Below, one piece after another: positions 2,379 through 55,438 of a stretch of 64,000 nucleotides of DNA. A program made the translations under genes and the position numbers. Under the pieces are notes generated by a model, which worked only from the letters and a program-made list of their open reading frames with translations, was not told the DNA's origin and ran no database searches. This DNA comes from Chiloscyllium plagiosum (lineage: Eukaryota): the NCBI RefSeq assembly GCF_004010195.1, contig NC_057755.1:4115462-4179461 (forward strand), given 5' to 3'. Numbering within the stretch: position 1 is the first letter of the stretch; every line of letters begins with the position of its first letter.

Positions 2379-3404
2379 TAACTTTTAGCACTGGCCAGAA
2401 TTCAAAGTCAGCTTCTGATGCCAAACAATAGATTGGGTCACTGAGAACAAGTAGTGATTCAATTCTAGTGATTTCCATGGAGAATGTTGGGTAGGCTACA
2501 GGGATTTCTAGCCCAGTTTTGTTTTCTGAATCTGGGAAGGGGAACACTACTCACATGGAGACGGCCTAGCACAGGAGCTTGAGTGCATGAGCCTGGACAT
2601 CAGGCAGGAACTTTTGCTTAATCCCAGGTAAAGTGCCTGATTTCTAAGCCAGAAGCTTGCAATGACCAATGCTGCATGGATTCAGATTTTATTTGGTAGG
2701 GGCTGTGGTGTATCATCTTGGGCATGTGGCGTGATGCTGTACCAAACGCAGAAGTTCTTATGATTGAGTTGGGTATCCAACCTGAGAATTTATGGTTGGA
2801 TTCACTGCTGAATACTTTCATTGTTAGATTGTTAATACACTCAATTTCATTCCCATGGGATGGATTCAAAGTTTTTTTAGCATTTCATATTGTGGAGTAC
2901 GTCCTTTCCCAGTCATTGTGAAGTGATTTAATGCCCTTTTCTGCAGTTTACATACCGTGGTTATGAAATTCTAGAGGCAATCTGAGCTGTGGAAAATCCA
3001 AAACCAAATGCAGGCACTTTGCAATCAATGTTTGTGCGAGATATTTCTCATTCGTTGCTTTGCTCATCTGGGTGTCTTTGTCTGGATTTTATATCTTATG
3101 TAAAATTCCAGATAGACAGAGTAACCTATAAAGTAGCTGAAATTAACACTGCTGACCCCTGTAAAACATTAAATACATGACCATGTTGCTGGGAATAGAT
3201 TTTGGCTCATGTTCATCCCAATATCTTTATAAAATGCAAATGATTCATTTTGGTGGCTTGTTGTGATTCAAAGTATTTAATTTGATATGAAAGAGGACAA
3301 CAATTGCCCTTGTACCTAAACTCAATCCCTTATAGTCTGGACACATGGACAGAGAACGTTTGATCAGTAACTTCAATTCTTCTTTTCTTTTCTCTCTTTT
3401 ACAG

Positions 3405-4291
3405 TTAGTCTAATGGTGATTGTATTCTTGACCCGGGGCAAGTGTGGTCTTTCTGCATGTACCATTCGTTATTTGGTGGCCATGGCAACGTCTGATCTAC
3501 TGTTCATTATGTTTGATGTCATATTTCGTCGGTTTAGTTCCTATTATTATCCACAGTGTTTCCTGGACATCACGCCTGTTTGTAGCATTATCAATGTCCT
3601 GACCTTCTTAGCTATTGATTGTTCTGTCTGGTTCACTGTTGCATTTTCTTTTGATCGATTTGTCGCCATTTGTTTTCATCAAATGAAATCTCAGTATTGC
3701 ACAGAGAAAACTGCACTGAGGGTTCTAGCAACAATCTGTATTTTCTTTTCTTTAAAAAATATTCCCAATTACTTTAGATTTCGACCTGGGAAGATTACCA
3801 ACAATGTTCCATTGTATTGTGTTACCAGTTACAGTTATAATAATGACCGTCGGTGGTTGAGTTTCAAATATTTTGAAAAATTTTTAACACCATTTCTCCC
3901 ATTTGCTTTTATTCTCTTTCTCAACATTCTGACTGTCAGACATATCTTCGAGGCAATAAAAGTGCGTGAAGATCTGAGGGGTCAGAGAAAAATAGAGAAT
4001 GACTCAGAGATAGAGAGCAGAAAGAAATCTGTAATTTTACTCTTTGCCATATCTTCCAGCTTCATACTTCTCTGGTTGGCGTATATTTTATATATCTTTC
4101 AAGCTGCTTATCATTTGGGTTATGCTGCATTTGGCCTCTTTGAATTAATCGCATTTATGCTGCGGAACTTAAGTTGCTGCACAAATGCATTTATTTACGT
4201 GGTGACACAGAATAGTTTTAGATACCAGTTAAAGTGTGCAGTGATATATCCAGTTAAAAAATTAATTCAATTAATGAATAAATCCAAATAA
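3405..4291 (+). CDS. GPR139-like class A GPCR, copy A, second (main) coding exon; exon 1 lies upstream of the window
   Basis: Polypyrimidine acceptor 'ctctcttttacag|tt' at 3404/3405 (phase 1); open frame to TAA at 4291; 'RGKCGLS..T.RYLVAMATSDLL', 'DCSVWFTVAFSFDRFVAIC' (DRF motif), TM7 'SCCTNAFIY'; hydrophobic TM2-TM7. Confidence 0.9.
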
Positions 4292-7830: not shown

Positions 7831-8274
7831 GTAATATTTTTCCGAGCTGCTAAATCTAACCCAGAGTCAACTCATAATTGGTGAAACAATCATTCATTCC
7901 ACTGTTACCTCTGTACAATTGCAACCAGCGTCTTATCAGCCTGTCATCAGGCTATAAGCTGCATGCATTTATTTTGTCCAAACTTCTTCCATCCTCCTGA
8001 TTTGCTTTCTCAACAATTCCATTCCCTGATCATCCACTGACTGCAGTGACCTACTTAGAGATATTCTACACTACATTCTCTATTTTATTTGTCTATTCAA
8101 AATGTTCCATTGTCAACCAATCATTTTTTTTTACATCTTTGGACTGGTGTAAATCTTGTTTTGAAAACTCCACATGAAAGTGTTCAATGTTCTGCTGTGA
8201 TACAAATGCTACCAGTTGCTGTGATGGGGAAATAAATTACAGATAATATTGCACTGTGTCAAATGGAAAGGTAG

Positions 8275-18519: not shown

Positions 18520-20145
18520 CTCCAATTGCCTTGTTTGTGTGTTTTCTAGAGCCTTTTGCTGAGTCCATCAGGAAGGATGCCAGCCTGAGAGGGGTGACTA
18601 TTCCAGGCAGTGGAGTCCGGCAGGTCAAATCTTCCCTGTGCATGGACAACGTCGCTGTTTTCTGCGCCGATCCGCTGTTAGTACATAGAATCCTGAATGT
18701 CTGAGACCGGGTGGAACTGGCCTCGGGAACGAAGCTAAATCGAGGCAGTAGCGAGGGCGTGTTCTTTGGGAACTGGGCTGACTGATTTTTTACACCCTTC
18801 AACATTAGGACAGATTACAGGACGGTGCTGGGAATATAGTTTGAATGGGCTAGTGGACGAATTCTTTGGAGGAGTGCATCGCCAAAGTGAAGCAGAAACT
18901 GATCTTTTGGGCGCACTACTCCCTGTCCACTGAGAGGAATAATCTTGTCAGCACTCTTGTTATTGTAAGTGGTACGGGTTTGGTCTATTCCCCCAAACTA
19001 CACTGTTTCAGTGACCCAAGCCATCTTCCACTTCATCTAGAGATCTAAGATAGAGTGTGTCTGCAGGGACTCTACGTCCAAACCTCTGGATAAAGGGATG
19101 AAGAATGTACCCAGTGATACCCTCATCCTGGTGGTCACATTTGTGTGTGACTGCATCAACTTGTGTGTAGACCTTTCGTATTTAAACACCAAGTGTTGCA
19201 ACGTACTAAGATTCAACCTGAAGGCACTGTTGTGAAGGATGAGATTAGGTTCCAAGTAATTGGTTCATTCCGTATTATATGTCCTTTGTGGAGAAATTTG
19301 CAAAGATAAATACTTTTGACCATAAGTCCTTCAAGGAGTGGTGGGCATCTCGCGTCCTCAAGACCTTGCCAGAAAAGAGAGGGTGGATCCTGTTGGGTTG
19401 TTCCCTAAGCAGATTGTCAGTCATTGGGCAGAATGCCTCACTACCAGAACTTTTCAACAAGCACCAAGCCGTTGCTTGGCTTGTAGTGAGAAGGACACGA
19501 CCTGTCAGATTCTTCATGTCCGCCTGGTTTTGTCTGTGCCACCGCAAGCTTCCCTCAGCGCAGGGCAGAGGATGAGACTGTCACACACCTCCTTCTATGA
19601 AGTGCCTTTGCTAAGGACGTCTGGAGAAAAATGCAATGGGTTTTGTTGAGGTTTGTCCCGAGCAGCTCTGTGATGTACGACTCTGTGGTCTACAGGCCTT
19701 TCCCCAGGATGCACACTGAGACAATCATCGACAGCATCCGAGAGTCCATAAACTCAGTGAACGACGCTCTTTGGTCTCCCTGAAACCTTGTTGTCTTCCA
19801 GAGCAAACATTTGACCGAGTTTCGCAGATTGACCAATTCCAAGGTCCAGGACTAAAAGGATGCACTAATGCTTTTGGCAACTGTCGCCAAGGCACAGTGG
19901 AGAATTACCATTGTCTGACATCAAAATGCCAAATGTAAATGGGGGATCGTTCAGTTATCAGACCCTTCAAATACGTCAGATACATAGCAATGTATTCTTT
20001 ATGCAAGGAAAGTTGTTCTTTGCTGGAGTCCAATTTCAATGTCTGTTTTCTTCCTATGCTATTGTACAGTGCCAAAATGCTTCAGTACCCATGTATGTTT
20101 GTACACTTTAATGAATAAAGTATATCTTCGAAATAAGAAAAGAAT
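18520..20145 (+). mobile_element. Tx1-like (L1 clade) LINE, 5'-truncated ORF2 and 3' UTR
   Basis: 'LFVCFLEPFAESIRKDASLRGVTIPGSG..VKSSLCMDNVAV' (degenerate YMDD); 'WEECIAKVKQKL', 'PELFNKHQAVAWLVVRR'; AATAAA at ~20115 followed by an A-rich end. Confidence 0.8.
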
Positions 20146-20753
20146 CCTTCCTTAGATATGGGACCCAAAACTGTCCACAATATTCCAAGTGCCTTATACA
20201 TCCTGAGCAGTACATCTCTGCTCTTGTATTCCAACCTTCTCAAATAAACACTAACATTGCACTTTCCATCCTAACTGCCAACTGATTCTGCATTTTAACC
20301 TGAAGACAATCCTGAGTGCGGACTACCAAGTCCCTTTGAGTTTCAGATTTGCAAAGCCTTTCCCCATTGAGAAAACAGTCTCCATCTTTCTCATTCTAAT
20401 CACAGTGCATAACCTCACACACTTTCCACATTGTACTACACACCTCCCTCCCCCAACTGAACCGTCAGAGAATCCTGAACAAGGACTCACTGCCACCGAG
20501 TATCTGTGTTTCCGGTCTGGCAGCACCTGCCCAGAGAGAGAGATAAAGAAGAGACAACGTTTCGAATCCGGGGGGTGGGGGAATGGCCATCCTTCGGGAC
20601 AGTGCGCTTTGGGAGTTGGTGCTCCGACACACAATTTCTTCATCACTTTCACCTCTCTGACTGTGACGAGTTTTCATTCTGATCCATATTATTGTGTTGG
20701 GTCCCTTTTGCGTTTTTGTTTTCTCCCGTGAAAGGGTTGTTTCTGTTTAAAGG

Positions 20754-21396
20754 ACAAAATCAATAAAATTTAGATGAGACCACCAACACTGGAAACAAGA
20801 CAATTTATTCCACGATCTTATAAGCAGGGGCATCAATTGCAGAAGCAAATGAGCAAATGAGCAATGAGAATTCAAATTCTTACACAGTTATACCTTTGAG
20901 CTGCGTGAGGTCATCTCTCCCGACTCCTACATTACCCAATCTTTCTTAGTATTCTGCCACTGCCCAGCTGTGCTCCACCCTTATTTCCCCATTCTCTCCA
21001 AATTGGCAACCTTTCCCTCTGTAAGTGCTGACACAAGGCTAAACTTGTATCTCGATGTTCTTCTTACTTTGCTTGTAACATCATTCATTGTCCATAGGTA
21101 TATTCCATTCTTGAACATACATTTTAACAATGTATCTTTTCGTGCCTAGTTTATGCATTTCAACTATCTCAGCTATTTTGATGAGACTATTATTTAAAAC
21201 ATCATGATGAAAAAAAATATTTGCTTTAATAATTCTGCACTAAAGTTAGTACTCACTTATCCACAATTATACATTAAAGATAAAGATACATTTCCCTCAT
21301 GTTTGCTTAACTGATATTTTTCTTGTACCCCTTTACTGCACATACACTCTTGCTTTTCTATTTCTGCAAAACCAACACACTTCCTCATTTCTTACA
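20754..21396 (-). repeat. ERV 3' LTR (about 10 nt of the U5 terminus missing)
   Basis: Aligns to 28803-29439 at roughly 95% identity (by eye); begins TGTAAG on the minus strand at 21396; minus-strand AATAAA at ~20804-20809. Confidence 0.95.
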
Positions 21397-21420
21397 ACTC
21401 CCCCATTTCTTTTTTTTACC
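21397..21420 (-). promoter_or_regulatory. ERV polypurine tract
   Basis: Minus strand 'ggtaaaaaaaagaaatgggggagt' immediately before the 3' LTR TG. Confidence 0.85.
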
Positions 21421-21479
21421 ATTTGTTGTTTTTGAATTTTATTTTCTGCCCTCTTTTCATCCTATGGTGCTGAGGTTCA

Positions 21480-22784
21480 CAATCTTGCCATTTCTGTCCT
21501 TCGAAGTCTGTCTTTTTGAAACTCTAGGAGTAATCTGCTACTCTTTCTTTCTTGCGCTTGTGCTATTGTCATGACCATTATTGATTGTTGTCCTCCCAAA
21601 GACATTACCAGCTTAGTCATTATCCACTTTAACACATTAAATCCTATCAGTCGACCTACAATTATTAGTAATACGTAAATGCCTAAATTAACTAACCACT
21701 TTCCCCAACCAGTCAGTCCCCAATCACCACAACCCCATCCCTCATCTTTTCGAAGTTCATCCCCAATTTCTCTTATATTGCTTATCTTTTTCTTTACTAT
21801 TTCTGCCTTATCTTCCACTATAGAAGAGGTGTCTGTGATGAAGGTGCAGCATTCCTTACCAATCAGAGCACAGGTTTCCACCTTTATCGGCCACAAGATA
21901 GTCTAAAGCCATTCGATTCTATAAACTGTTAGTCTTGTGGCAATAATTTCGCTGGTTATGGCCGATATTTGGGATTGAGTTTCTCCCATTGCGCCGGCGG
22001 TATCATTAATTAAATTTTCAAGAGCAGCCGCCAGTTTCTGTATTTCCACCCCTGCCCTTATAGTGCCGTAGTTTGGGAGTAGTGTCCACAGCAAACGGTC
22101 CCCTTCAGAGACCTCTCGGGTCTTAGGTCTTATCCCTCCCCCCCTTTCTCAGATTGGGCTCATGTTGTTCTATTCGGAGGTGAGGGACTATATAAGCGAG
22201 GTCTTGAGGCAGTGTTTCATCAACTTCATAACATGCATGTATTTCTACACATTCGGTCACGCGAACATATTTTTCCCCGGGAATAAATGGATAGGCCTTC
22301 AGACCGCATACCCAATATGTTCCGTTTAATATTCGGGGAGTGGTCATCGCAGTGGTTTGGCTGGTGTAGACGAAAGATGATTTTCCTAACTGGTAGGGTG
22401 CGGCGTCATTCTGATTACAGAAACAGGTGGTATTCACTGCTCCTTTCGATGGGGAAATTCTAAGGCTGTCGATATAACCCTGGGTTTTTAGGGCTGGCCT
22501 TGGGAACCATCCCGCAAAGTTATATTTGCTCCTTTCAGATTCCCACTTTGTATTATTTGAGCCCAAGTCAAATCGTTGTACATCGTACACTTCTTTTTTA
22601 TTGAGCGGTATTACAGAGGTGGGATTCCAGATTCTCCGTGGTGTGGAATTTCTGCACAGACCCAACAGTCGGCAAGTCCCTCTTGTTTAGCATAATTTTG
22701 GCATAGTGTAGTGAAATGATTTTTCCCACTTCCTTGAACAGTTAGTACTGCTAACATTACAATACTATACTAGTACCCGCCCAT
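21480..22784 (-). pseudogene. env: ERV env (gamma-type SU/TM), frameshifted
   Basis: Signal-like 'SIVMLAVLTVQG', SU CXXC 'DCWVC', 'NGTYWVCG..AYP', basic cleavage-like 'RPKTR', heptad repeat, immunosuppressive domain 'NRMALDYL' (in a shifted frame), CX6CC 'CALIGKECC', TM 'WLVNLGIYVLLIIVG'. Confidence 0.9.
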
Positions 22785-22862
22785 CTCTGAACCCTGCCTA
22801 TTGCCCTGTCTTAATCTTTTAGGCGCCAGGGAGAAGTGAGTCCACGCAACCCTTACACTCAA

Positions 22863-22867
<5 letters not shown>

Positions 22868-22912
<45 letters not shown>
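22868..22912. repeat. (TA)n microsatellite inside the ERV pol-env spacer
   Basis: About 22 perfect TA units. Confidence 0.95.
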
Positions 22913-22915
<3 letters not shown>

Positions 22916-22945
22916 TCAAACGTTAAAAGAGTCTTTTATCTCAGT

Positions 22946-25900
22946 TCATTCCTTCTTTCTCAGCTTAACTTTCAGAGGGTTGTCTGTAGGATGAGCATGC
23001 CACTCCGCCAACAGGGCGTTCACAGACCTTTGATGCGAGTGTGATGACTCCACCCTTTCTCAGCAGTTCGGATTGCTGTCTCAGTAGTCAGGAGGGTTGG
23101 GAATGGTCCATCCCAGCTCGGGTATCTTTCCAGGTCTTGATCAGGACCCAATCATCTGGCTGTATACGGTGTGCTGCAAATTCGAGCGGTGGTGTTTGTA
23201 CCAACAAGCCTTTATTCCTAAGAATGGATAATGAAGAGCCAAGTACCATAATATAATTTTTCAAAAACTTGTCATTAAACTCAGCTTGTAGGCACCTCTC
23301 GTTTCCCTCCTAGGGATGGTAGCCCAAACATCATTTCATAAGGAGAAAGGCCGATATCGCGCCTTGGGGCAGTCTGAATCTGTAAAAGCACAATAGGTAA
23401 ACATTTGGTCCATGGTAATCGAGTCTCTTGGACCAGTTTAGATAATTGTTTCTTTATGGTCTGATTCATTCGTTCCAGCCACCCAGAGAAGGGTGGGTGC
23501 CAAGGGGTGTGCAATTCCCAAGAGATCTCTAATCTTGCCATTACTTCTTGCAAGATATTGGAAGTAAAGTGGCTACCTTGGTCTGAGTCGATACTTTCCA
23601 CTTTTCCATATCGTGGGATGCTATGTTCAAGGGTTTTTGCCACTCCTTTTGAGGTGGCTGATGACATTGGGAAAGCTTCCACCCACCCGGTTAAATGGTC
23701 TACTAGTACTAACAGATACTTCTGTTTTCCCACTGATGCTGGTTCGGTATAATCCACCTGTATACTTTGGAAGGGTCTCATCCCTGGGTTTCTTCCTCCT
23801 CTGAGCCCTTCCCTTACTATTTTCTTATTGATCTTTTGGCAAGTTATACATCCTGCGCATATCTGTTTTGCCAACGTATATATTCCCTTACATCCATATT
23901 TTCTTAATACTGTGTCACACATGGCTTGGGAACCCCAATGACTACTCTGGTGTAAGGTGGCTAAGATGTTTCTCATGACTGGTTTACTCAGTAATTCCCT
24001 CCCATCCGGGAGGATCCACTTTCCTTCAGTTGTCTTAGTGGCTCCTATTTCTTGGAACTCTTTTTCCTCTTCTTCTATGTATATGGGGTTCACGGGAGAA
24101 GAGTCAACTAAGGGTGTAAGAATCTGTATCCTTGTTACTGTATGGTTCATAGCTGCCTCTTTGGCTATCTCGTCTGCTAGCCGGTTTCCCTTTGCTTCTA
24201 AAGTGTTCCCCTTCTGATGTCCAGGTACATGGACTATAGCTATTTCCCGTGGTAATTTCAAACTTTTCAATACTTGTCCTATTAACTCTTCATGTACTAA
24301 TTCTTTTCCTCGACTATTGATTAGTTCCTGTTTTTGCCATATCTTTCCGAAGGTATGGACTACCCCGTAGGCATAGTTAGAGTGAGTGTAAATTGTCCCA
24401 TCCCGTTTCTGTAAGTGTTTTAAAGCTTAGTTTAATGCGTACAATTCACAGGTCTGGCTGACCATGTGTTAAGCAGCTGGTTTTTGTTAACGTCCACTGC
24501 TGCAAAAGATTGTGTCTTTTTCCTTCCACTACTCTGGATGACCCATCTATAAACAATCTGTCCCCGTCATGTAAAGGTAGATATCTCAGGTCCTGTCTAA
24601 TTTTGGTTTGATATTCTATGATATCTAAACAGTTGTGCTCTAATTCTCGTTTGTCTAGAGGTTCTCCCTTCCAAAGAAAGGTGGCTGGGTTTAGACAGGT
24701 GTCTGTTGCTAACGCAAGGTCATCCTTCTCCATCAGGATTGGCTCGGATTTTAGAATTCATGAATCTGTCAACCATCTTCCTGCCTTTTGTTTTAACACA
24801 GTTCTGACTAAATGGGGAGTGCTAAGTATTAGCGCTCCTCCAAAAGTAAGTTTCCGGTTTTCTTCTACCCAGATGGCAGTTGCTGCAATTGCCTGGATAC
24901 ATTCAGGCCATCCCCTGGAAACAGGGTCCAGGATTTTGGACAGGAAGGCTATGGGCTGTTTCTTTCCCCCTCCTTTCTGGGTTAATACTCCTAAGGCTAC
25001 TCCATCGTTTACTGTCACAGAAAGGTGAAATGAGTTCTCTAGGGAAGGAACGGCCAATACTGGAGCTTGTGTTAGACTACGCTTCAACTCACGGAACCCT
25101 TCCATTTCCTCTTCTGTCCAGTGCAGTCCTTCGTGTTCTGATTCTGTCAGTTTGTAATATAACCCCTGCGTTTTCTGGGCATAGGCTTATATCCATAATC
25201 TGCAATAACCCATCAGCCCCAGAAACTTTCGTAATTCTCGTTTGGTGTTCGGGAGAGGCAGTTCTACTATCCCTCGAATTCTTTCGGGGCTAAGCGTCTA
25301 GATCCCCCGCTAATAAGGTGTCCTAAGTATTTCACCTCTTTTTCTGCATATTGCAATATATTCCTAGATACTCAAATAACCCTGTTGCTCTAGGAAATTC
25401 AACAATGCATTGGTGGCCGAAATTATTTCTCTTTTGTCCTGACACAAGATCATCCACATATTGCAACAGTGATGTCTCCCGAGGCATTTTATATTGTTCT
25501 AGGACTTGTTCCAGTACTTGCCCGAATAAGTGGGGTGATTCTGTGAATCCCTGGGGAAGTACCGTCCATCGGAACTGTTGTTATCTGCCAGTGTATGGGT
25601 TTTCCCGTTCAAAAGCGAGCATGTCGCGGCTCTCTGGGGCTAAAGGACAAGCCCAGAATACATCTTTTAAATCTATTACACTAAACCAGCGATGGTTACA
25701 CTGTATCTTACTAAAAAGGGTATATAGATTGGGCACCACTGGGTGCCGTATCCAGACCAGTCGGTTCACTAATCTGAGATCTTGTACCAGTCAGTAAGTT
25801 CCATCTGGTTTCTGGACGGGTAGTATTGAGGTATTTAAGGGTGATATGCATGGTTCTAATAACCATTCTTTTACTAGAGAGTCTATTACCGGTTGTAAAC

Positions 25901-26420
25901 CCTTGCGCCCCTCTAATGAAACTGGATATTGTTTAAGCTTTACTTTTTTATTTTCTTGTGACAGTGTAATTACGATGGGATTAACGTTTAAATGACCCGT
26001 GTCCCCGGTTTTCGTCCACACGTTAGGATTTATCTGTTCTTCATCACTAGTCGTTAGTTTATTTATTGTTACAGTTATTGAACTATTCTCTACACGAATC
26101 TTCAAGTTTAACAAAATTATTAAATCCCTACCCAAGAGATTGCTTCCAACATCAGGAATATATAATAGTTGTCCCGTCACTTCTTCGTTATTTCCCTTTA
26201 TTCGGGTCGGCTCAAAGATGGGCACTAAGAATCCTTCGCCTTTTACTCCAGAAACTCTGAGACTCTTATTAGTTACTTTAACACCGCGAGGTCTAAAAGT
26301 TAGGGATGACTGTGCCGCTCCCGTATCCACCAAAAACACTGCCTCCTCTCCTTCAGGTCCCACCTTCAGATTTATCAAAGTTTCCCGGTGGGTCTCAGGA
26401 GGAGGGAACCTCTGACTCCC
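22946..26420 (-). pseudogene. pol: ERV pro-pol (PR, RT, RNase H, IN), frameshifted
   Basis: PR 'FLVDTGA'; RT 'IDLKDVF', 'LPQGFTESP', 'LQYVDD'; RNase H 'LFIDGSS', 'HVPGH..GNRLADEIAK'; IN HHCC 'HQSSHWG...CAGCITC', 'IQVDY', 'DSDQGSHF', 'ERMNQTIK'. Confidence 0.95.
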
Positions 26421-27919
26421 CTATTCTTCATCAAAAGTCATCAATGACACTGCTTCTCTTTGTCGTCCAAACTTTGGACATTCCCTTTTAAAATGTCCTG
26501 TTTTTCCACAGTAATAACATCCCGACTGTTGCCTTCTTCCTCTACCATCTGATCTCTGTCTCTCTTGTTCTCCCCTGTTGTTCTCTGATTCTAACTTTCT
26601 CGTCGTAATTTTCTCAACCGCTGCAATCTTTATTTTAGCTTTCTGTTTTTGTTTCTCGTCTTCTCTTTTCACATATACTTTCTGTGCCTCACGTAACAAA
26701 TCTTCCATCTGGTTTTCACTCCATCCTTCTAATTTCTGTAACTACTTTTGTATGTCCGGCCATGATTTAGTCACAAACTGGCCCTTTAAGAGTCTGTGTG
26801 CTACCGGATCATCGGGATTCATTCCCGAATATTTTCTAGTGGTCTGTTTTCGTCTCTGTAAAAAGGCTGACGGGGCTTTTGCTCCTTCTCCTGTCTTACT
26901 TCAAAGGCTTTTAAAAAAATCTGAGATTTAGGTGCTGCTTCACTAATAGCCAAAATAACCATTTCTCGAAAGTCTCTCATTTCTCCTCTTTCATGTTCAT
27001 CCATGCCCTGCCAACAGGGGTCCACATTGGGGAATTTGTTTTCGGCTGGTATTTCTCTTCACCCACCGAATGTCTCTTCTTCCATTCCCTCAGGGCAGCT
27101 CTTCTGATCATACCCCTTTCTTCCCCTGAAAATAGCGTCCCCAGAATGCTCATCAGTTCACCCCATGTGTACAAAATCGGCCCCAAAAATTGGTCCAGCT
27201 GTTCCGTCAATCCTACGGGGTCTTCAATCAAGCTTTTCCTTTCTTTTTTTAAAGGATCTAACTTCACTGCTAGTTAGTGGTGCATTGACATATCCGATTT
27301 CGCCGTTCCCAACAGGTAGTTCTCTAAGGGGATATATTTGTGCCGTTGCCCCGCCTATGTTCCCCTCTTCCCTCCTTTTCACTGCTCATCTAGTCTTAAT
27401 TGGACGAGGGGGGAGGTCTTCCCCCAGACTTTTTCAATTCTTGTACTGGGGAGGGCGCTGTGGGAGAGGGGAAAATTGACAACAGACCATTACTCTCGTT
27501 GTCGGAAGGCGGGGGGTAAACTTGACAAATGATCTCAATGGGAAACCTTCGTTTCCTCAAAACCTTCTTCTGACTTTTTCGAAACAAGGATTTTCGGACT
27601 CCCTATTCAACAGGAAGCATAGTCAGATTCTTCACAGCAGTATTTTTGTTTCTTACTTACATATATATTTTAAATCTTTACATAGCCAATCTTCCTCTGA
27701 CCCATATTTTGGCCAAATTATACTTGGAGTTTTAATGCTTTCCTTCGCCCAGACAAAACAACAGAATTTTATCATTTCTTTTTTATCCTTTCCTCGCGTC
27801 CGAGGATTGTACTTCCGATTTCTTAACATTTTTCCTAAAGGACTGTCCATTGGGATGTGGTCCTCGGACGTCCTTCTAATGTCTCCTACTAAACTTAAAT
27901 CACTATTTTTATTCCCCAT
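26421..27919 (-). pseudogene. gag: ERV gag, frameshifted
   Basis: Myristoylation-type start MGNK; MA 'IPMDSPLGKML...MIKFCCFVW...WPKYGS'; single CCHC knuckle 'CYYCGKTGHFKREC'; amber TAG at 26423-26421 in frame with pro. Confidence 0.93.
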
Positions 27920-28185
27920 TTCAGTACGCAGTCGTTTCTTTATGTAATTTAGTTAATCTTTCTGAGGTCTGGTGTAACCTTCTTCCATACCCACTTCAGG
28001 GTCCTGAACTTCACAAAGGAGATTTCTCCTCTTAGCAACCGGTCTAAGGTTGGGTGATCGAATCAGGTAGACACCTTACTCGTCAGATTAATCTAGCCAA
28101 TTAGATATTTTATTTTATATGTTGCCAATTCCCCATACTTCTCGTACGTCCCCGACCACCAAGGCAATACTCAAAGGTCAATTTT

Positions 28186-28195
28186 CTTACCTTGG
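28186..28195 (-). promoter_or_regulatory. Candidate ERV major splice donor (for env mRNA)
   Basis: Minus strand 'ccaag|gtaag', a consensus donor in the leader upstream of gag. Confidence 0.55.
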
Positions 28196-28242
28196 TCTGT
28201 GCACAAGAGTTACCTGGTAGAATCAACGCACCCCATTCTGCA

Positions 28243-28431
28243 GCAATACCTGGCAACCACTACCGTTGCCTATCCTGATCTGACCAAACCTCCCGCTGCG
28301 TGTCAGCGCGCCCTGTCCCATGGCAATACCTGGCAACAACTACCGTTGCCTATCCTGACCTGACCAAACCTCCCGCTGCGTGTCAGCGCGCCCTGTCCCA
28401 TGGCAATACCTGGCAACCACTACCGTTGCCT
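28243..28431. repeat. 80-bp tandem repeat (~2.4 copies) in the ERV leader
   Basis: 'gcaatacctggcaaccactaccgttgcctatcctga...ccctgtcccatg' at 28243, 28323 and 28403 (partial); further diverged pieces to ~28630. Confidence 0.9.
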
Positions 28432-28772
28432 GTATCCGGGTCATATGTACAAAATATTTACCCGAAAGAACTCACCACATATCAGCGCGCCCTGTCCCGC
28501 GGCAATTCCCAGATATATCTACCTGGCAGCAACTACCCCTGCCTACCCCAGTCGCCCGGATAAATCTTTTAAGATCTTTCTTACTCGGGTCTTGTGCACA
28601 CAAGAGTCACCTGACCAAACCTGCCGCGTCTGCCCATCTTGTTTCCAGAGTCTCTCAGCCCGGATCACGCTCGTCCAAGCTGCTGTGGCAAGGAGGGAAA
28701 CTCGAGACCGCCGAAATCTGCGAGGTGCACCTTCTCCATTTTCCCAAAAATGCTGAGCCACCGGAGCTTGGG

Positions 28773-28790
28773 ATCCCGGATGAGCCCCCA
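28773..28790 (-). promoter_or_regulatory. ERV primer-binding site, tRNA-Pro
   Basis: Minus strand TGGGGGCTCATCCGGGAT versus the MLV Pro PBS TGGGGGCTCGTCCGGGAT (1 mismatch); 2 nt after the LTR terminal CA. Confidence 0.93.
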
Positions 28791-28792
28791 AA

Positions 28793-29439
28793 TGTGCTCG
28801 AAACAAAATCAATAAAATTTAAATGAGACCACCAACACTGGAAACAAGACAATTTATTCTACGATCTTATAGGAAAGGGCATCAATTGCAGAAGCAAATG
28901 AGCAATGAGAATTCAAATTCCTACACAGTTATACCTTTGAGCTGCGTGAGGTCATCTCTCCCGACTCCTACATTACCCAATCTGTCTTAGTATTCTGCCA
29001 CTGCCCAGCTGTGCTCCGCCCTTATTTCCCCATCTCTCCAAGTTGGCAACCTTTCCCTCTGTAAGTGCTGACATAAGGCTAAACTTGTATCTCGATGTTC
29101 TTCTTACTTTGCTTGTAACATCTTTCATTGTCCATAGGTATATTCCATTCTTGAACATACGTTTTAACAATGTATCTTTTCGTGCCTAGTTTATGCGTTT
29201 CAACTATCTCAGCTATTTTGCTGAGACTATTATTTAAAACATTAAGATGAAAGAAATTATTTGCTTTAATAATTCTGCACTAAAGTTGGTACTCACTTAT
29301 CCACAATTATACATTAAAGATAAAGACACATTTCCCTAATGTTTGCTTAACTGATATTTTACTTGTACCCCTTTGTCTGCACATACACTCTCTTGTTTTT
29401 CTATTTTTGCAAAAACAACGCACTTCCCCATTTCTTACA
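28793..29439 (-). repeat. ERV 5' LTR (647 bp)
   Basis: Minus strand TGTAAG...AGCACA; matches the 3' LTR; followed by the PBS. Confidence 0.95.
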
Positions 29440-29514
29440 GGTCACACCCGGAGTAGGTCCCTTTTGCGTTTTTGTTTTCTCCCGTGAAAGGGTTGTTTCT
29501 GTTTAAAGAGTTGT

Positions 29515-29710
29515 TCCCCGTTAACCGCCATCTCCCGCGCGAGAGGCCGGAGGGGACGGGGCCTGGAGCGAAAATGGCGGCGGCCGTTAACAGCCATCTC
29601 CCGCGAATGGGGCCTGGTGCTAAAATAGTGGCAGTGGCCGGCTCCACCCGGAAAGGAGCAGCGTCGGAGGGAGAGCTGAATATGTCGGCAATGTCCCGTT
29701 CCTGAAGGTA
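29515..29710. promoter_or_regulatory. Small CpG/GC-rich promoter-like patch
   Basis: CpG-rich in a CpG-poor background; YY1-like 'aaaatggcggc' and 'ccgccatct'; internal duplicated motif 'gttaac.gccatctcccgcg...ggggcctgg.gc.aaaat'. Confidence 0.4.
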
Positions 29711-30374
29711 ATAATGGTGGTTATTGTGGTGGGGGGAGAACGGAGAGATTCTTGCTGTTTCTCCCTTCCTCACACTGTCCTACACCAGGTGAATGATGAT
29801 GATTGTCTGTTGTTTCCATCTCTCTGATCCGGGAACTTCACTGTTCCTCAGGTTAGTGACCACTACTAGCCAGAAATGGGATCTGCAGCCACCCTGCACA
29901 AATGTTCAGCGTCTGTGAGGCTCAACGGAGCAGCTCATGTGAACAATCAGTTTCTGTCTGTATACTGAGCACTCACTTTGGGATACGTTCAGATTGAGAA
30001 ATAAAACAACAGCTTGTATTTTTAAATCATATTTTTTGGATATTTGTGAGCTTGTCCAGTTCAATTGTATTCAAAATTGAGCACAATTTTGCAAAACAAT
30101 TTGAGCATTAGTCTGAAAGAGTTGAAACAGAGAAAATTTCATAATAAAGTGTAAAACTCAGGAGCACTGATTGTTGTGAGGCTGGTTCTGACACGTTCAT
30201 CCTCTTTCCCCATCTCTGCAGTCTATGTTGGAATTGTTCAGTGATTCCAACAGCTTCTGTAATTATTTCAGATTCCCAATGGGAGCAGGATCTCATTTGT
30301 CGTGCTCAAAAAATCCCTGTGCTGACATCAACATTTAAATAAGAAATAGGAAGCAGCGGAGAGGAAAGCTTACA

Positions 30375-32844: not shown

Positions 32845-34915
32845 ATCAGTAAAATGAGATCACATGGGATTCAGGGTGAGCTTGCTAATTGGATACAAAA
32901 TTGGCTTCAGGGCAGGAAACAGTGATGGCAGAGGTATATATTTTGGACAGGAGGCCTGTGACCAGCGGTGTTCCACAGGGATCGGTACTGGATCCACTTT
33001 TGTTTGGCATTTATATAAATGATTTGGATGGGAATATATAAGGCACGTTTAGTAAGTTTACGGATGATTGGTGGTGAAGTGCTCAGTGAAGAATATTACC
33101 TCAGATTACAAAGAGATCTTGATCAATTGGTTCAATGGACTGAGGAGTAGCAGATGGAGTTTAATTTGTAAATGTGTGAAGGATTGCATTTTGGTAAAGC
33201 CAACAGGGATAGAACTTAATGGTAGGGCTCTGGGTCGTGTTGTAGAACAGAAAGACCTCGGGATTCAGGTACATCATTCTTTGAAATGTGTATTCTCAGT
33301 AGACAGGGTTGTTAAGAAGGCGTTTAGTAAGCTTGGCCTCATTGCTCAGACCATTGAATACAGCATTTGGGATGTTATACTGAGATTTTACAGAATGTTA
33401 GTGAAACCTCTTCTAGATTAATATGTGCAATACTGGTTGCCCTGTTACAGGAAGGATTAAACCTAAGAGGGCTCAGTAAAGATTTACCAAGATGTTGCCG
33501 GGAATGGAGGGTTTGAGATGTAAAAATAGACTCGGAAGGCTAGGACTTTTCTCACTGGAACATTAGGGATGGGCGGTTGAACTTATTGGGGTTTATACAA
33601 TCATGAGGTGCATAGAGAAGATAAATGACAAGGTCTTTTCTATCTGGTGGGGGAATATCAAACCAAGGGGTCACATTTAAAGGTGAGAGGAGAAAGATTT
33701 AAAAAGGACCTGAGGGGCAACCTTTTTACACAGAGTGGTTTGCATATTGGAAAGAACTGCCAGAGAAAGTGATGTATGCAGGGACAGTTACAACATTTAA
33801 AAGGCAGAGATTCATAGAGATGTACAGCACAAAAACAGATCCTTCAGTCCAATTTGTCTATGTCCACCAGATACCGTAAGTAAATCGTGTCCCATTTGTC
33901 AGCACTTGGCCCATATCCCTCTAAACCCTTCGCATTCATATCCTCATCCAGATGCCTTTTAAATGTTGTAATTGTACCAGCCTCCACCACTTCCTCAGGC
34001 AGCTCATTCCATAAAAGCACCACCCTTTGTGTGGGAAAGTTGCCCTTTAAGTCTCTTTTAAATCTTTCCCTTCTCACCTAAAGCCAATGTCCTCTTGTTT
34101 TATCCTATCCATGCCCCTCATGATTTTATAAACCTCTTTAAGGACACCCCTCAACCTTCGACAATGCAGGTAAAACAACCTCAGCCTATTCAGCCTTTCC
34201 CCATAGCTGAAACCCTTCACCCCTGGCAACATCCTTGTAAATCTTTTCTGAATCCTTTTCCGGTTTCACAATATTCTTCCTTTAGGAGGGAGACCAGAAT
34301 TGAATGCAGGATCTCAAAGTAGCAGAAACAATGTCCTAAGCAGGCGGGACATGACCTTCTAACTCCTATACACGATGCTCAGGCCGATAAAGGAAAGCAT
34401 TCCAAATGCATTCGTCACTATCCTATCGACTTTCGACTCCACTTTCAAGGAACTGTGAACCTGAGCTCCAAGGTTTCTATGAGGAGAAAGTGAGGTCTGC
34501 AGATGCTGGAGATCAGAGATGGAAATGTGTTGCTGGAAAAGTACAGCAGGTCAGGCAGCATCTAGGGAACAGGAGAATCGACGTTTCGGGCATTAGCCCT
34601 TCTTCAGGACCATGAAGAAGGGCTAATGCCCGAAACGTCGATTCTCCTGTTCCCTAGATGCTGCCTGACCTGCTGCGCTTTTCCAGCAACACATTTCCAT
34701 CTCCAAGATTTCTATGTTCAGCAACCATTAAGTGAATAGGTCCTGGCCGGATTTGCTTTTCTAAGATGCGCATTTGGAAAAGTTCATGAACAGGACAGGT
34801 TTGAAGGGATACGAACCAAGCACAGGCAGGCGGGACAGTTTGGTTTTGGAAGATGGTTAGTGTGGATGGGTTGTCCCAACCGGTCTGTTTCTATGCTGTA
34901 TGATTCTATGACATT
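32845..34915. mobile_element. Plus-strand CR1 (32845-~33805, resuming ~34770-34915) with a nested minus-strand CR1 (~33806-34770)
   Basis: Plus RT '[20 protein letters not shown]'; minus 3' ORF 'RRERFKRDLKGNFPTQRVVLLWNELPEEVVEAGTITTFKRHLD'; the plus copy resumes with 'catttggaaaagttcatgaacagg...ttctatg'. Confidence 0.8.
34482..34700. mobile_element. Palindromic Penelope-derived mini-element with a 16-bp TSD and hammerhead cores
   Basis: 91-bp arms 34516-34606 / 34613-34703 (2 mismatches), 6-nt loop; TSD ctccaag(g/a)tttctatg at 34466-34481 and 34701-34716. Confidence 0.9.
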
Positions 34916-36955: not shown

Positions 36956-37839
36956 CTACTTGGATTTATTCACCAGTTGCATTATTTTTATAACTGAATA
37001 GTTCACGGCATACTTTAACTGGTCTCTAAATTTTTTCTGGGTCACCACATAGATAAGTGCATTTGTGCAGCAACTTAGGTTCCGCAGCATATATGCAACT
37101 TCTCGAAAGAGACGATAATCATAGTAACTCAAGGAATCACCAGCTTCAAAGAACTTTAAAATAAACAGAAACCACAGAAGTATGAAGCTGGCGGATATGG
37201 CAAAGAGTAAAATCACAGAATTCTTTCTGCTCTCTATCTCTGGGTCACTCTCTATTTTTCCCTGAGCCCTCAGTCCCTTACGCATCTTCATAGCCTCGAA
37301 GATGTGTCTGGCGGTCAGAATGTTGAGAAAGAGAATAAAAGTGAATGGGAGCATTGGTGTTATAAAATGTTCAAAGAATTTAAAAGCTTCCCACCGGTCA
37401 CGAAAATAACTGGACCTGGTATCACAATACCATGGAACATTGTTGATAATCTTTTCAGGTTTATATCGAAAGTATTTGGGAATGTTCTTTAAAGAAAAGA
37501 AAATGCAGATTGTTGCTATAACTCTCTTTGCAGTTTTCTTTGTACAGTACTGAGCTTTCATATGATGAAAACAAATGGCGATAAATCGATCAAAAGCAAA
37601 AACAACAGTGAACCAGACAGAGCAATCAATGGTCAAGTGGCTCAGAGCATAGATAACACTACAAACAGGAATGATGTCCAGGAGACACTGTGGATAATAA
37701 TAATACGGAAATCTGTGAAGTACAACGTCAAAAATAACGAACAGTAGATCAGATGTTGCCATGGCCACAAGGTAGTGAGTGGTGCATGAAGAAAGGCCAC
37801 ATTTCCGCTGAGCTAAGATTATTATTACCACGAGACTGA
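36956..37839 (-). CDS. GPR139-like class A GPCR, copy B, exon 2
   Basis: Acceptor 'ctctctctcctacag|tc'; open frame to TAG at 36956; 'DCSVWFTVVFAFDRFIAIC', 'SCCTNALIY'; clear paralogue of 3405-4291. Confidence 0.92.
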
Positions 37840-38219
37840 CTGTAGGAGAGAGAGAAAGGAATGAACAGATTAGAAGTTACTGATCAAAGATTCTCTGATG
37901 CCTGAGCCCAGGCGTAAATAATGGCACCAAAAATAATTGTTGCTCCATGTCATATGAATTTTAAAGAATCTGAACCAAAGCAGCAATCCCTCTTGAAATG
38001 AACCATTTGCACTTTTAAAAGACAGAGGGAAGAACATGGACAGCAGATTGCTCACAAAAACAGAGTCATGTACTCATTGTTTTGGGGGGATTGGTAGTGG
38101 TTGACTTCAGTTGTTTTGTAGGTTACTCAGACTGGCTGGAGGTTCCCTTGAGACCATAGCATCCACACAATTACACCTTGAATCAGTGAAACAAAGAATG
38201 GGAGACAGCAACGTGGACA

Positions 38220-44099: not shown

Positions 44100-45130
44100 A
44101 AAAAGTCCTGATTGATTCAGTTTTTTGAAATGGGAACCAAGAAGGTAGATGAGGGCAGTGCGATAGCCATTGTCCACATATACTTTAGCAAGATCTTTGA
44201 CAAAGTATCTTATGGGTAGGTTATTGAGTAAGGTTAAATCTCACGGGGAGAAAGTGAGGACTGCAGATGCTGGAGATCAAAGTCGAGAACATAGTGCTGG
44301 AAAAGCACAGCAGGTCAGGCAGCAGCCGAGGAGTAGGAGAGTTTATGTTTCAGGCATAAGCCCTTCATCAGGAATTATGTAGGGCTAATGCCCAAAACGT
44401 CGAAACTCCTGCTCCTTGAATGCTGCCTGACCTGCTGTGCTTTTCCAGCACTATACTCTAAATCTCACAGGATCCAGGAGAGCTAGCCAATTGGATCCAA
44501 AATTGGATTGATGATAGATGGCAGAGGATGGTGGGAGATGAGTGTGCTTCAAACTGGAGGCCTGTGACCAGCAGTGTACCACAGATTCTGGGTCCACTGT
44601 TATTTATCATTTATATCAATGAATTGGATAGGAATTTCAGAGATAACATTAGTAGGTTTGTGGATGGCACCAAGATTGATGGTACAGTAGGCAGTGAAGA
44701 AGGTTATCTGGAAATGTAGAGAGATCTTCAACAACCGGGCCATTGGGCTGAGGAGTGGCAGATTGAGATTAATTTAAATAAATGGAAGGTGTTGCATTTT
44801 GGCAGGACTTACATAGACAATGGTAGGGTCCTGGGAGTGTGACAGAACAAAGAGTTTTTTTCATCATTCAGAGCATTAGCTATTGGGATTGGGATGTCTT
44901 GTTGCAGCTGTACAAGATATTGGTGAGGCCACATTTGGAATGCTGCATGCAGTTCTGGTCGCCTTACTATATGAAGGATATTATTAAAGTGGAAAGAGTG
45001 CAGAAACGATTTACTAGCATGTTGGCTTGTCTGGATGGTTGGCATTATAAGGAGAGGTTAAATAGGCTGGGACTCTTCTTCCCAGGAGAATGAAAGACTG
45101 AGGGTTGACCTTACTGAGGTCTACAAACGC
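44100..45130 (+). mobile_element. CR1 ORF2 fragment carrying a palindromic Penelope mini-element (44247-44458)
   Basis: 'VTSSVPQILGPLLFIIYINELD..ISRFVDGTKI', 'LQLYKILVRPHLECCMQFWSP'; the insert is flanked by taaatctcac(g/a)g at 44235-44246 and 44459-44470. Confidence 0.85.
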
Positions 45131-53699: not shown

Positions 53700-55438
53700 T
53701 GATGGTGTTCAGCAGAAACACAAGGAGATGCTCCAGGTACAAACTGAGAAATTGAGTGAACACTGCCCTAATGAATGAGACGTTGAACAGGTTCTAGCTG
53801 GCTGATCAATACACTGAGTAACCGCTCATCTCTATTGTATGAGATCAGACATCTATAGAAGATGAACTGCTGGCAAGAGGCCGCAATCTGAAGAGTGGAG
53901 AGACAGACATCTCCGGACAGACCTGGAAAAATACAAACACATCAGTTGTTCCAAAGCAGTTTTTATCCCTCAGAGAAATTCCAAATCTGGGAGTACGGTC
54001 GCAGTGACTAGAGACCCAGCGATTGGAAAAACAATAATGGTACAAAAGGTTGTTTATGACTGGGCAACTGGGAAAATATACCCAGAATTTCAATTTGTTT
54101 TCAGTATTAAATTCCAGGATTTGAACGCTATTAACTGCAGTATAAACCTGAGGGACCGGATACTGAATCAGTATCCTTACTTCGGGAATATTGTGGGAGA
54201 GCACTGTAAGAATCCAGAGGGTTTGCTGTTTACAATCGATGGTTTGGATGAATCCAAAGACAGTATTGATTTTTCTGACAGTCGGAGAAATACAGAACCT
54301 CAGTTCATGTGCACGGATCCTGAATGCTGGTGTGAAGTGTCTGATATTGTGTACAGTTTAATCCAGCACAAGCTGCTCCCAGAATGTTCACTGCTGGTGT
54401 CCGACCATCCCACTGCATTCCATTGACTGGAAAAGACTGGGATTAGTGTCTGGGCTGAAATCCTAAGATTTGTTGGTGATGAGCGGAAGGAATATTTCAA
54501 AAGGTTTTTTGAGGATCAGACGGCGGCAGCAGCTGTTTTCAAACACGTGGAAGAGAACGAGATCCTGTACGCCATGTGCTACAACCCTTCATACTGCTGG
54601 ATCCTCCGTCTGTCACTGGGTCCCTGTTTCACAGAAAAAGACAGGAAACAGTAGAAAGTTCCCAGGACCATCACCCAGCTCCATTCCTACTATATTTATC
54701 ACATTCTGCAAAACCATGGCCGAGAGATTGAAGATCCCCATGATGTGTTACTGAAGCTTGGTGAGATGACCTTCACAGGAGTCTCTGAGAAGAACATGGT
54801 GTTTAGGAAAGGATATTTGATCCACTACAACCTCCATCACCGCCCCCCCCCCCACCCTCACCCCCACCAGTTCCTGTCTAGGTTCATGATGGAACTTTTG
54901 GAGAGAGATGATTCTGTCTGCAGTGTCGTTTACACATTCCCACATCTCACCCTCAAAGAGTTTGCAGCTGCTCTGCTAAAATTCCTCACCCCAGTTCCCA
55001 GGGACAACCCAAAGCTCCTCAGTGAAGCCCATAGCAAGGACGATGGGCAATTTGGGTGATTTCTCCATTTCGTTGTTTGTATCTCCTTCCCAGTGACAGG
55101 TCGGCTCTTGGAGGAGTTTTAGGATAAATTTCTTTATCAAAAATCTGCAAAGTGATTGGGTGAAGGAGAAGGTTAAAGAACAAATTGAGAACACAGCAAG
55201 TGAAACTGATAAACGGATTTCCTGAGAACATGGCTTTATCTGTTTGAGCCTCAGATCCAAGCACTAGCTGGGTCCACATTGGGATTTCTAAATGTCTTGA
55301 AGCTTAATGGATTGATGACTGTGCAATAATATCTTATGTCAGTGAGTTCTATGACACACTCAAACACATCGATGTAAGTGACTGCTGCACTCATTGTGAA
55401 GGATTGCAGTATCATGCTCCCAAATGCCAAGTGTTGAG
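53700..55438 (+). pseudogene. NLR (NLRP3/NLRC3-like) FISNA-NACHT exon pseudogene
   Basis: FISNA-like 'QQKHKEMLQVQTEKL...LADQYTE*..EDELLARG'; degenerate Walker A 'VTRDPAIGKT'; Walker B 'LLFTIDGLDE'; 'MCYNPSYCWI'; 'VYTFPHLTLKEFAAAL'; several in-frame stops and frameshifts; donor 'gag|gtaatg' at 55438. Confidence 0.9.

Follow-up and report, generated by a model that had tools for sequence, protein, structure and literature searches.

How did a retrovirus come to rest in a shark genome between two identical copies of a 53-nt host sequence, with the tip of its left LTR missing and 16 nt standing between its right LTR and the right-hand copy? The locus lies in a 64,000-nt window of Chiloscyllium plagiosum DNA (contig NC_057755.1, positions 4,115,462 to 4,179,461), which is the whole stretch analyzed here and supplies all coordinates below.

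The provirus and its flanks

The provirus is an old, dead retrovirus at a single locus in a cartilaginous-fish genome, with its elements on the minus strand between 20754 and 29439. The features at issue are as follows.

20700 to 20752, plus strand: left copy of the 53-mer, opening with the same GGTC that lies behind the intact LTR end; its other 49 nt were probably copied from 29460 to 29508
20753, plus strand: single junction base, untemplated or a changed LTR base, with 0 to 1 nt of microhomology
20754 to 21396, minus strand: 3' LTR, its U5 tip probably shortened by 7 to 8 nt (by 10 nt when 28793 is taken as the starting point), with loss of the terminal CA
21398 to 21417, minus strand: polypurine tract
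21480 to 22686, minus strand: env remnants in several pieces
23284 to 26420, minus strand: remnants of pol, with protease, RT/RNase H, and integrase parts scattered over several frames
26424 to 27952, minus strand: gag remnants, broken, with a zinc knuckle (PF00098)
28243 to 28431, no strand assigned: 80-bp unit in 2.4 copies in the proviral leader
28773 to 28790, minus strand: primer-binding site
28795 to 29439, minus strand: 5' LTR, with its U3 end intact at 29439
29440 to 29455, plus strand: host 16-mer, of which 29440 to 29443 is a putative 4-bp target duplication
29456 to 29508, plus strand: right, probably original host copy of the 53-mer, opening with a second GGTC
29509 to 29720, plus strand: CpG-rich, low-copy host unit with a splice-donor-like site near 29708

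Gag and pol lie in one frame with a single TAG between them, and the nearest solved relatives are MLV/XMRV for RNase H and PFV for integrase. With a pol related to gammaretroviruses, and gag and pol in one frame behind a stop, the provirus classes as a putative class I gamma/epsilon-like ERV. The primer-binding site is presumably of the tRNA-Pro type, and we take a motif in the TM piece of the env remnants to be CX6CC-like; a Pfam scan of two env pieces gave no matches.

The locus is a duplicated gene cluster, of which the insertion splits a CpG-rich, putatively promoter-like unit. The part of this unit at 29509 to 29720 contains what we take to be a YY1-like word and a splice-donor-like site, and is a putative promoter or first exon. 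An inverted or tandem unit in the window was considered and rejected: similarity between the left and right flanks was at chance level in either orientation (32 of 300 shuffles scored as high).

Direct comparison agrees with the original prediction that the 53-mers at 20700 to 20752 and 29456 to 29508 are identical, and the match cannot be extended by even one base on either side. The window contains no N, and within it the 53-mer has no third copy and no 12-mer relative of note. Because the two copies are offset by 8756, while the LTRs are offset by about 8040 to 8049, the 53-mers are not part of the LTR repeat. This difference, together with other LTR family copies that stop aligning at 29439/29440, rules out the idea, raised at the outset as a possible refutation, that the 53-mer belongs to the family's LTR. 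As to a second such idea, that the 53-mer is a common repeat, its region belongs to a low-copy host family, with a summed contig depth of about 95 to 105 at 29482 to 29534 against about 12 for single-copy sequence, when reads are counted from 80% likeness upward; but this family does not account for two exact copies hugging a provirus.

A putative target duplication at both junctions

The 16 nt at 29440 to 29455 occur once in the window and, as originally predicted, are absent on the left. Directly behind the intact LTR end, at 29440, they begin with GGTC, and the same word opens the left block at 20700. GGTC is unique (at 20700) within 20600 to 20800 and is present in 29380 to 29620 only at 29440 and 29456; the chance of finding it at a fixed place is about 0.005. 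Although the original prediction saw no 4-6-bp target duplication (TSD), this arrangement fits a normal 4-bp duplication of GGTC hidden at both sides. MLV/XMRV- and PFV-type viruses make 4-bp duplications according to the excerpted part of PMC4422553, and the 4-bp expectation for this provirus family is drawn from these relatives. GGTC fits only three of the five target preferences reported there for 4-bp viruses. The locus departs from a canonical provirus in that the left GGTC is separated from the clipped LTR by 50 nt. Nor does the duplicated block border the element at each end, as in a bona fide long TSD of the HML-2 type: on the right, 16 nt of host DNA separate the LTR from the 53-mer.

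No RNA run was among the 24 runs listed, which has no bearing on expression. Contigs from 4 of the 24 runs, with the possible source sample belonging to the remaining runs, were aligned over 28740 to 30300; the observations below refer to the 40 of 525 difference rows, 24 of 450 loose ends, and 30 of 1272 pieces that were listed. Organism B, a related species represented by one sample in two runs (X14 and X15), has contigs that pass from the LTR interior through the flank. Record 12 of X15 spans 29319 to 29605 with 34 differences in 285, record 6 of X14 spans 29408 to 29605 with 26 differences in about 198, and each has only 1 to 2 gap letters; the LTR end, a stretch of the 16-mer's length, the 53-mer, and the flank are all in register. 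These contigs bridge LTR and flank by 121 and 32 letters (the threshold being an overlap of 31) and mark the bases behind the U3 end as host, while organism-A contigs overlap the LTR by 29 and 20 letters only, below that threshold.

A paralogous contig in both organism-A runs was aligned by hand. It matches 29444 to 29455 at 10 of 12 positions with one gap (binomial probability 4e-5 before allowing for the choice of gap); ahead of these 16-mer-like letters, it also agrees with the end of the left flank at 10 of 12 positions. Counterparts of the left flank's end and of the 16-mer and 53-mer are joined in this paralog, which suggests that the two flanks were a single locus before being split.

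These contigs bear on the reading of the 16 nt as filler. A left side without the 16-mer would be accounted for if 53 bp were truly duplicated and an untemplated 16-nt filler were added at the intact end, or if two proviruses in paralogous units recombined (the pseudo-TSD model, as outlined in the excerpt of PMC5488345). Paralogous units do exist, since the flank is a low-copy family and the locus a duplicated gene cluster. Nevertheless, the paralog matches the 16-mer, organism B keeps its length, and filler is not expected at an integrase-made end. Moreover, paralogs differ at many positions, whereas the two 53-mers are identical, and the clip would stay unexplained. We consider both versions highly improbable: the filler of the original prediction appears to be host DNA, and the two-provirus recombination that it also offered is unlikely in view of the hand-aligned paralog. 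From the anatomy alone, we are highly confident that the 16-mer is host DNA and that the right junction is canonical. The U3 junction looks integrase-made, and only the U5 junction looks aberrant.

The clipped U5 end and a proposed route of integration

In the assembly, the left LTR is clipped at its U5 tip. The clip had been recognized originally but put at about 10 nt, whereas 7 to 8 nt is more likely: the window departs from family contigs at position 28794, and in a second subfamily the loose ends begin with TG at 28795, which maps the LTR tip of the family to 28795. We also considered whether the last left-flank bases are an LTR tip split off by an insertion (a likeness of 4 to 6 nt) and set this aside, as it leaves no TSD and needs two rare events. 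Compared with nearly all family contigs, the window's 5' LTR has two differing positions within the U5 tip or next to it, and these may represent the defect that led to a one-ended event.

The locus has the features of a one-ended integrant, namely, an intact U3 end on host DNA, a truncated other end, and nearby host sequence duplicated at the aberrant end. With modest confidence, we favor a one-ended integration rescued by host DNA synthesis in a single germline event that would be older than the split from organism B; one-ended or repair-assisted integration, one of the options first proposed, is the best reading after this analysis too. The timing and mechanism are less sure than the anatomy. 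The empty site would have run from the left flank (to 20699) through the 16-mer and 53-mer into the right flank. Integrase would have joined the U3 end before the GGTC that opens the 16-mer, at the junction seen in the assembly, and the U5 end, left unjoined, would have lost 7 to 8 nt. Its free 3' end may then have served as a primer on the neighboring host strand, at the outer end of the 53-mer, and been extended by host polymerase toward the insertion point. The first GGTC met would be the start of the 53-mer, 16 nt short of the true insertion point, where the copied strand could anneal, after gap filling, to the GGTC of the free left host end. The outcome would be a block of 53 bp, shifted by 16 bp, instead of the 69 bp expected from a plain long duplication; the copied 53 nt do start 16 nt beyond the normal junction. 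A single event would thus account for the clipped tip, the block with its opening GGTC, and the offset of 16 bp. We suggest more tentatively that the provirus is a germline fossil of second-end capture, in which the TSD word GGTC served as the annealing site that ended host-polymerase copying. The homology of the viral end to the copied template, a usual but not obligatory trait of one-ended integrants, is 0 to 1 nt, or one inserted base, and a priming site without clear microhomology speaks against the one-event model.

Deletion between short direct repeats is a known event class and offers another path to the same letters. A one-ended integration could have given a 69-bp duplication (16-mer plus 53-mer), the left copy of which later lost 16 bp between GGTC words. 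This predicts exactly the same sequence but takes two rare events and shares the identity problem of the one-event model, which makes it very unlikely.

Timing of the duplication

The LTR pair differs by 28 substitutions in 633 aligned bases (4.4%; K2P, 4.6%), plus about 4 to 5 indel events, close to the roughly 5% estimated originally. If the two 53-mers were as old as the LTRs, some difference between them would normally be expected, which counts against the one-event model: the probability that all 53 positions stayed identical is 0.05 to 0.09 on the LTR clock and 0.007 at the A-B divergence of about 9%. The view that this identity mildly favors a later event holds on the LTR clock and is still mild. 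The LTR divergence is about half of the A-B divergence (p 8e-6 under equal rates), and LTR gene conversion or a paralogous B contig is a possible source of the gap. In the right flank, 19 of 30 listed rows look specific to the window's copy, at least about 2.4% of the stretch, which fits, but does not prove, a slower A lineage.

Two other organism-A individuals also speak against the one-event model, each with a single contig that crosses the 53-mer without a break (X5 record 19, 29411 to 29846; X8 record 27, 29420 to 29726). The k=31 graph of the window branches at both 53-mer ends, and the contigs are non-branching paths after graph simplification, according to the excerpted Logan preprint. 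Because the contigs are nevertheless unbroken, the left copy may be missing in these individuals; graph cleaning could equally have removed the branch. Among the rows listed for the 4 runs over 28740 to 30300, neither an empty allele nor a joint leading from 29508 back to the LTR tip was found, and an exact 27-nt search of metagenome contigs returned 0 matches.

One history that would accommodate these contigs begins with canonical integration and a 4-bp GGTC duplication. Much later, a break at the left junction would have exposed a host end in GGTC, which primed at the second GGTC of the right flank or of a homologue, was extended by 49 nt, and was attached to the trimmed LTR by end joining; the block may then still be polymorphic. 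Perfect 53-mer identity despite the LTR and A-B divergences, unbroken contigs in both of the other individuals examined, and GGTC on both sides speak for it. Yet a further rare event would have had to strike precisely at the junction and draw on a template at a distance of 8.7 kb, while long duplications at integration run near 2% in HML-2 (8 flanking duplications of >10 bp among 451 putative TSDs, in the portion of Kahyo et al. 2017 consulted, PMC5488345). Moreover, the probability on the LTR clock is not decisive, and the unbroken contigs come from one study and can be produced by graph simplification. We regard such later repair as rather unlikely, though as the main rival of the one-event model; if the left block is polymorphic, it would record recent templated repair at a proviral edge instead.

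The same contigs could mean that the left block is an assembly artifact or private to the source individual, as they suggest a single 53-mer in two others, and the left junction is unseen in the aligned reads, which covered the right side from 28740 to 30300. Without any N in the window, and with a block whose first letters are a TSD-like word and which takes the place of the LTR tip alone, unlike a typical collapse or overlap error, we give this very little credence.

Comparison with known systems

One-sided insertions are known from laboratory experiments and primate genomes (Oh et al. 2006 is reportedly a further source on such aberrant integrants); the event class is known, and no new principle is involved. 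In the excerpted text of Varadarajan et al. 2016 (PMC5041404), one end of experimental one-ended integrants is normal, while the other is often truncated and primes host polymerase on nearby DNA, giving duplications. They arise from ASLV/RSV vectors with a mutated end and from HIV-1 under suboptimal strand-transfer inhibitors or with weak integrase. The shark provirus resembles them in its normal and truncated ends, the nearby host sequence on the bad end, and the long flanking duplication. It differs from these cell-culture integrants in that it is old and germline, and in that its block is shifted by 16 bp from the normal junction and stops where the TSD word recurs. The final joining differs as well, with homologous recombination proposed in that excerpt and 4-nt annealing suggested here.

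Germline duplications far above 4 to 6 bp also occur in fixed or polymorphic primate ERVs, and the excerpts of PMC5488345 and PMC4422153 ascribe them to inefficient integration plus host repair or to later rearrangement. Examples are HERV-K (HML-2) at 7p21.2 (250 bp), 6p25.2 (111 bp), 21q21.1 (450 bp), and 16q23.1 (61 bp) (PMC5488345), and chimpanzee Pan2Ap (15 to 18 bp; PMC4422153). Unlike the shark provirus, these elements are betaretrovirus-like, and in the cases excerpted their duplications directly abut the element (with 2 extra nt in one case); the shark provirus is class I-like, lies in a cartilaginous fish, and has a clipped U5 tip and an offset block.

In the literature on shark and fish cases, microhomology, or templated insertion at proviral junctions, as far as the portions covered extend (subscription papers lying mostly outside them), the offset structure is not described. 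Offset cases may be present in the TSD list of PMC5488345 and in the junction lists of PMC5041404 (supplements). If the tentative GGTC annealing is true, it is a step absent from the literature examined in these portions, and offset duplications ending on a TSD-word repeat should recur among ERVs and published aberrant junctions. The locus shows, in addition, how what seems a long duplication with "filler" can conceal a normal TSD, and how annotation and TSD-based dating are then led astray.

Among class I gamma/epsilon-like ERVs with a tRNA-Pro site and stop read-through, the provirus is alike in its MLV/XMRV-nearest RNase H, in-frame TAG, polypurine tract, and primer-binding site, and differs in that the best solved match of its integrase is PFV. 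On the favored reading of a single one-ended integration, it would provide a natural, old germline example, outside primates, of the repair-assisted route worked out in cell culture, with junctions simple enough for step-by-step reading.

Provirus Structure and Class

The provirus that lies between two copies of a 53-nt block (53-mer; positions 20700-20752 and 29456-29508) is decayed and runs on the minus strand. Zinc knuckle, protease, RNase H, and integrase domains were found in four of the seven provirus pieces scanned. Given the positions of the PBS and PPT on this strand, the right LTR is the 5' LTR and the left LTR is the 3' LTR:

28773-28790, minus-strand provirus: PBS
approximately 21398-21417, minus-strand provirus: PPT
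U3 end at 29439: 5' LTR (right LTR)
U5 end at 20754: 3' LTR (left LTR)

The nearest solved structures are those of MLV/XMRV for the RNase H and PFV for the integrase, and gag and pol share one frame, separated by a single TAG, on which basis we predict that the provirus is class I-like. It also contains a (TA)23 microsatellite between pol and env (22867-22913) and an 80-bp tandem repeat in its leader (28243-28431).

The LTR pair differs by 28 substitutions in 633 bases, which by thirds number 7, 7, and 14 and are densest at the U3 end (29227-29439 versus 21190-21396); this unevenness possibly reflects partial gene conversion, or noise. At 7e-10 per generation, the rate given for the epaulette shark (PMC10587355), 2.3% per LTR would correspond to an uncalibrated age of approximately 3e7 generations, provided that this rate applies.

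Junction Sequences

As the original prediction held, the 53-mers are identical, and their boundaries are sharp. A piece of the LTR repeat was considered for the 53-mer and ruled out, as evidenced by an offset of 8756 versus approximately 8040-8049 for the LTRs. A 4- to 6-bp target site duplication, said to be absent, can in fact be read on both sides: GGTC opens the 53-mer and also the 16-nt stretch (16-mer; 29440-29455) that follows the intact LTR end, and so the locus can be read from its sequence as a 4-bp GGTC duplication plus 49 extra bases and 1 junction base before the clipped left LTR. Within 20600-20800, GGTC occurs at 20700 only, and within 29380-29620, it occurs at 29440 and 29456 only; its chance of falling at a fixed place is approximately 0.005. 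MLV, XMRV, and PFV make 4-bp target duplications (PMC4422553), and GGTC agrees with three of five target preferences reported for such viruses, a weak fit.

The tip of the left LTR is clipped in the assembly, by 7 to 8 nt and not the roughly 10 nt first proposed, because family contigs and loose ends among the matches listed place the family U5 tip at 28795. Among these matches, almost every family contig departs from the 5' LTR at two positions, which lie within or next to the U5 attachment tip. Two changes within four bases (28794-28797) exceed the expectation from a 2% background; they may be original to the virus or may represent later decay.

Host Origin of the Flanking Sequence

A search with the right flank returned 24 runs, including 8 strong ones for Chiloscyllium plagiosum (4 possibly from the source sample) and 8 weak ones for a related species. 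Contigs of four runs were compared over 28740-30300: two runs came from other C. plagiosum individuals, both in a single study, and two from one sample of the related species. In both C. plagiosum runs, a paralogous contig joins into 29460 via 32 letters, which match 10 of the 12 bases of 29444-29455 (hand alignment with one gap; binomial 4e-5 without correction for where the gap was put). Letters farther upstream in this contig agree, again by hand alignment, with 10 of 12 bases close to where the left flank ends. The 16-mer, described originally as filler, is therefore very probably host DNA, and the filler or two-provirus readings built on the original description now appear highly improbable. 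Since the paralogous contig matches both the left-flank end and the 16-mer and joins at 29460, the left flank, 16-mer, and 53-mer would constitute one host unit.

Summed contig depth is approximately 95 to 105 over the 53-mer versus approximately 12 for single-copy contigs, and CpG is enriched in both flanks relative to their surroundings. The host unit is a low-copy family, which fits its location in a gene cluster with a pair of GPCR genes and a disrupted NACHT gene (2 GPCR and 2 NACHT-related frames among 144 scanned). The rhodopsin-family GPCR frames (3371-4288, plus strand; 36959-37876, minus strand) are inverted paralogs with approximately 80% DNA likeness, while the NACHT and winged-helix (NLR-like) frame at 53866-55300 (plus strand) has several stops and is probably a pseudogene. 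A promoter-like unit at 29517-29725 carries short internal repeats, the number of which varies among paralogs and in the related species, and the CpG-rich unit at 29509-29720 may serve the NACHT (NLR-like) family as a first exon. Elsewhere, fold-back repeats with arms 6 to 8 nt apart occur at 34516-34703 and 44286-44459. The decayed stretch at 18540-19900, in which the frames scanned had no Pfam matches, looks by eye like 3' sequence of a Tx1/L1-type LINE.

A Proposed One-Ended Integration and Its Alternatives

Varadarajan et al. (PMC5041404) model such events as follows: one end is inserted by integrase, and the remaining end, which is frequently truncated, serves as a primer for a host polymerase that copies nearby DNA. 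Its later joining to either side of the initial junction yields a deletion or a duplication. Here, the U3 end would have joined at the first GGTC (29440), and the clipped U5 end would have primed at 29508 and copied toward the insertion point, meeting the GGTC at 29456 first. The copied GGTC would then have annealed to its counterpart on the left, a GGTC made by gap filling at the free host end. Such an event would explain why the tip is clipped, why the block is 53 bp long, and why it is offset by 16 bp. We lean toward this single one-ended integration with host-polymerase copying, for which the junction sequences are observed and the order of steps is what we infer.

A canonical provirus whose left junction was mended later by templated repair is possible but doubtful. 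In its favour, and against the single event, identical 53-mers would have a probability of 0.05 to 0.09 if the copies were as old as the LTRs, or 0.007 at the divergence between the two species. The contigs are more telling: a graph built from the window at k=31 forks at each end of the 53-mer, yet contigs from the two other C. plagiosum individuals run through unbroken. Because Logan contigs are described as non-branching paths after simplification (Logan preprint), either these individuals lack the identical left copy or the branch was lost in graph cleaning. We nevertheless rank later repair second to one-ended integration because it requires a rare event precisely on the junction and a distant template. 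A 69-bp duplication that later lost 16 bp seems very improbable, as does an artefact in the left block.

Age of the Insertion

The C. plagiosum contigs cover 29411-29846 (no substitutions, one gap) and 29420-29726 (no differences), and both span the 16-mer/53-mer and 53-mer/flank boundaries; they reach 29 and 20 bases into the LTR, fewer than the 31 needed for a formal bridge. In the related species, contigs beginning at 29319 and 29408 continue past the LTR end and into flanking sequence, showing 12 to 13% difference but just 2 and 1 gap letters, respectively, and another covers 29716-30297 with approximately 9% difference. Both species thus appear to share the LTR end as well as a segment as long as the 16-mer, and the insertion would predate their split unless the contig from the related species is a paralog. 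Divergence within the LTR pair is half that between the two species (p 8e-6 under equal rates); a slower C. plagiosum lineage, LTR conversion, or paralogy may explain this.

Comparison with Published Cases

The locus is real and old, was partly misread originally, and represents a kind of event already published. A literature search that reached few subscription papers found no shark or fish example of a long ERV-flanking duplication and no account of the offset form. Under a strict test for long duplications of the HML-2 type, the locus falls outside, as the block does not adjoin the right LTR. Nevertheless, it works like the long duplications reported for HML-2, where 8 of 451 putative target site duplications exceed 10 bp and two have validated empty alleles (PMC5488345), and for chimpanzee Pan2Ap, whose 15- to 18-bp duplication has already been tied to RSV experiments (PMC4422153).
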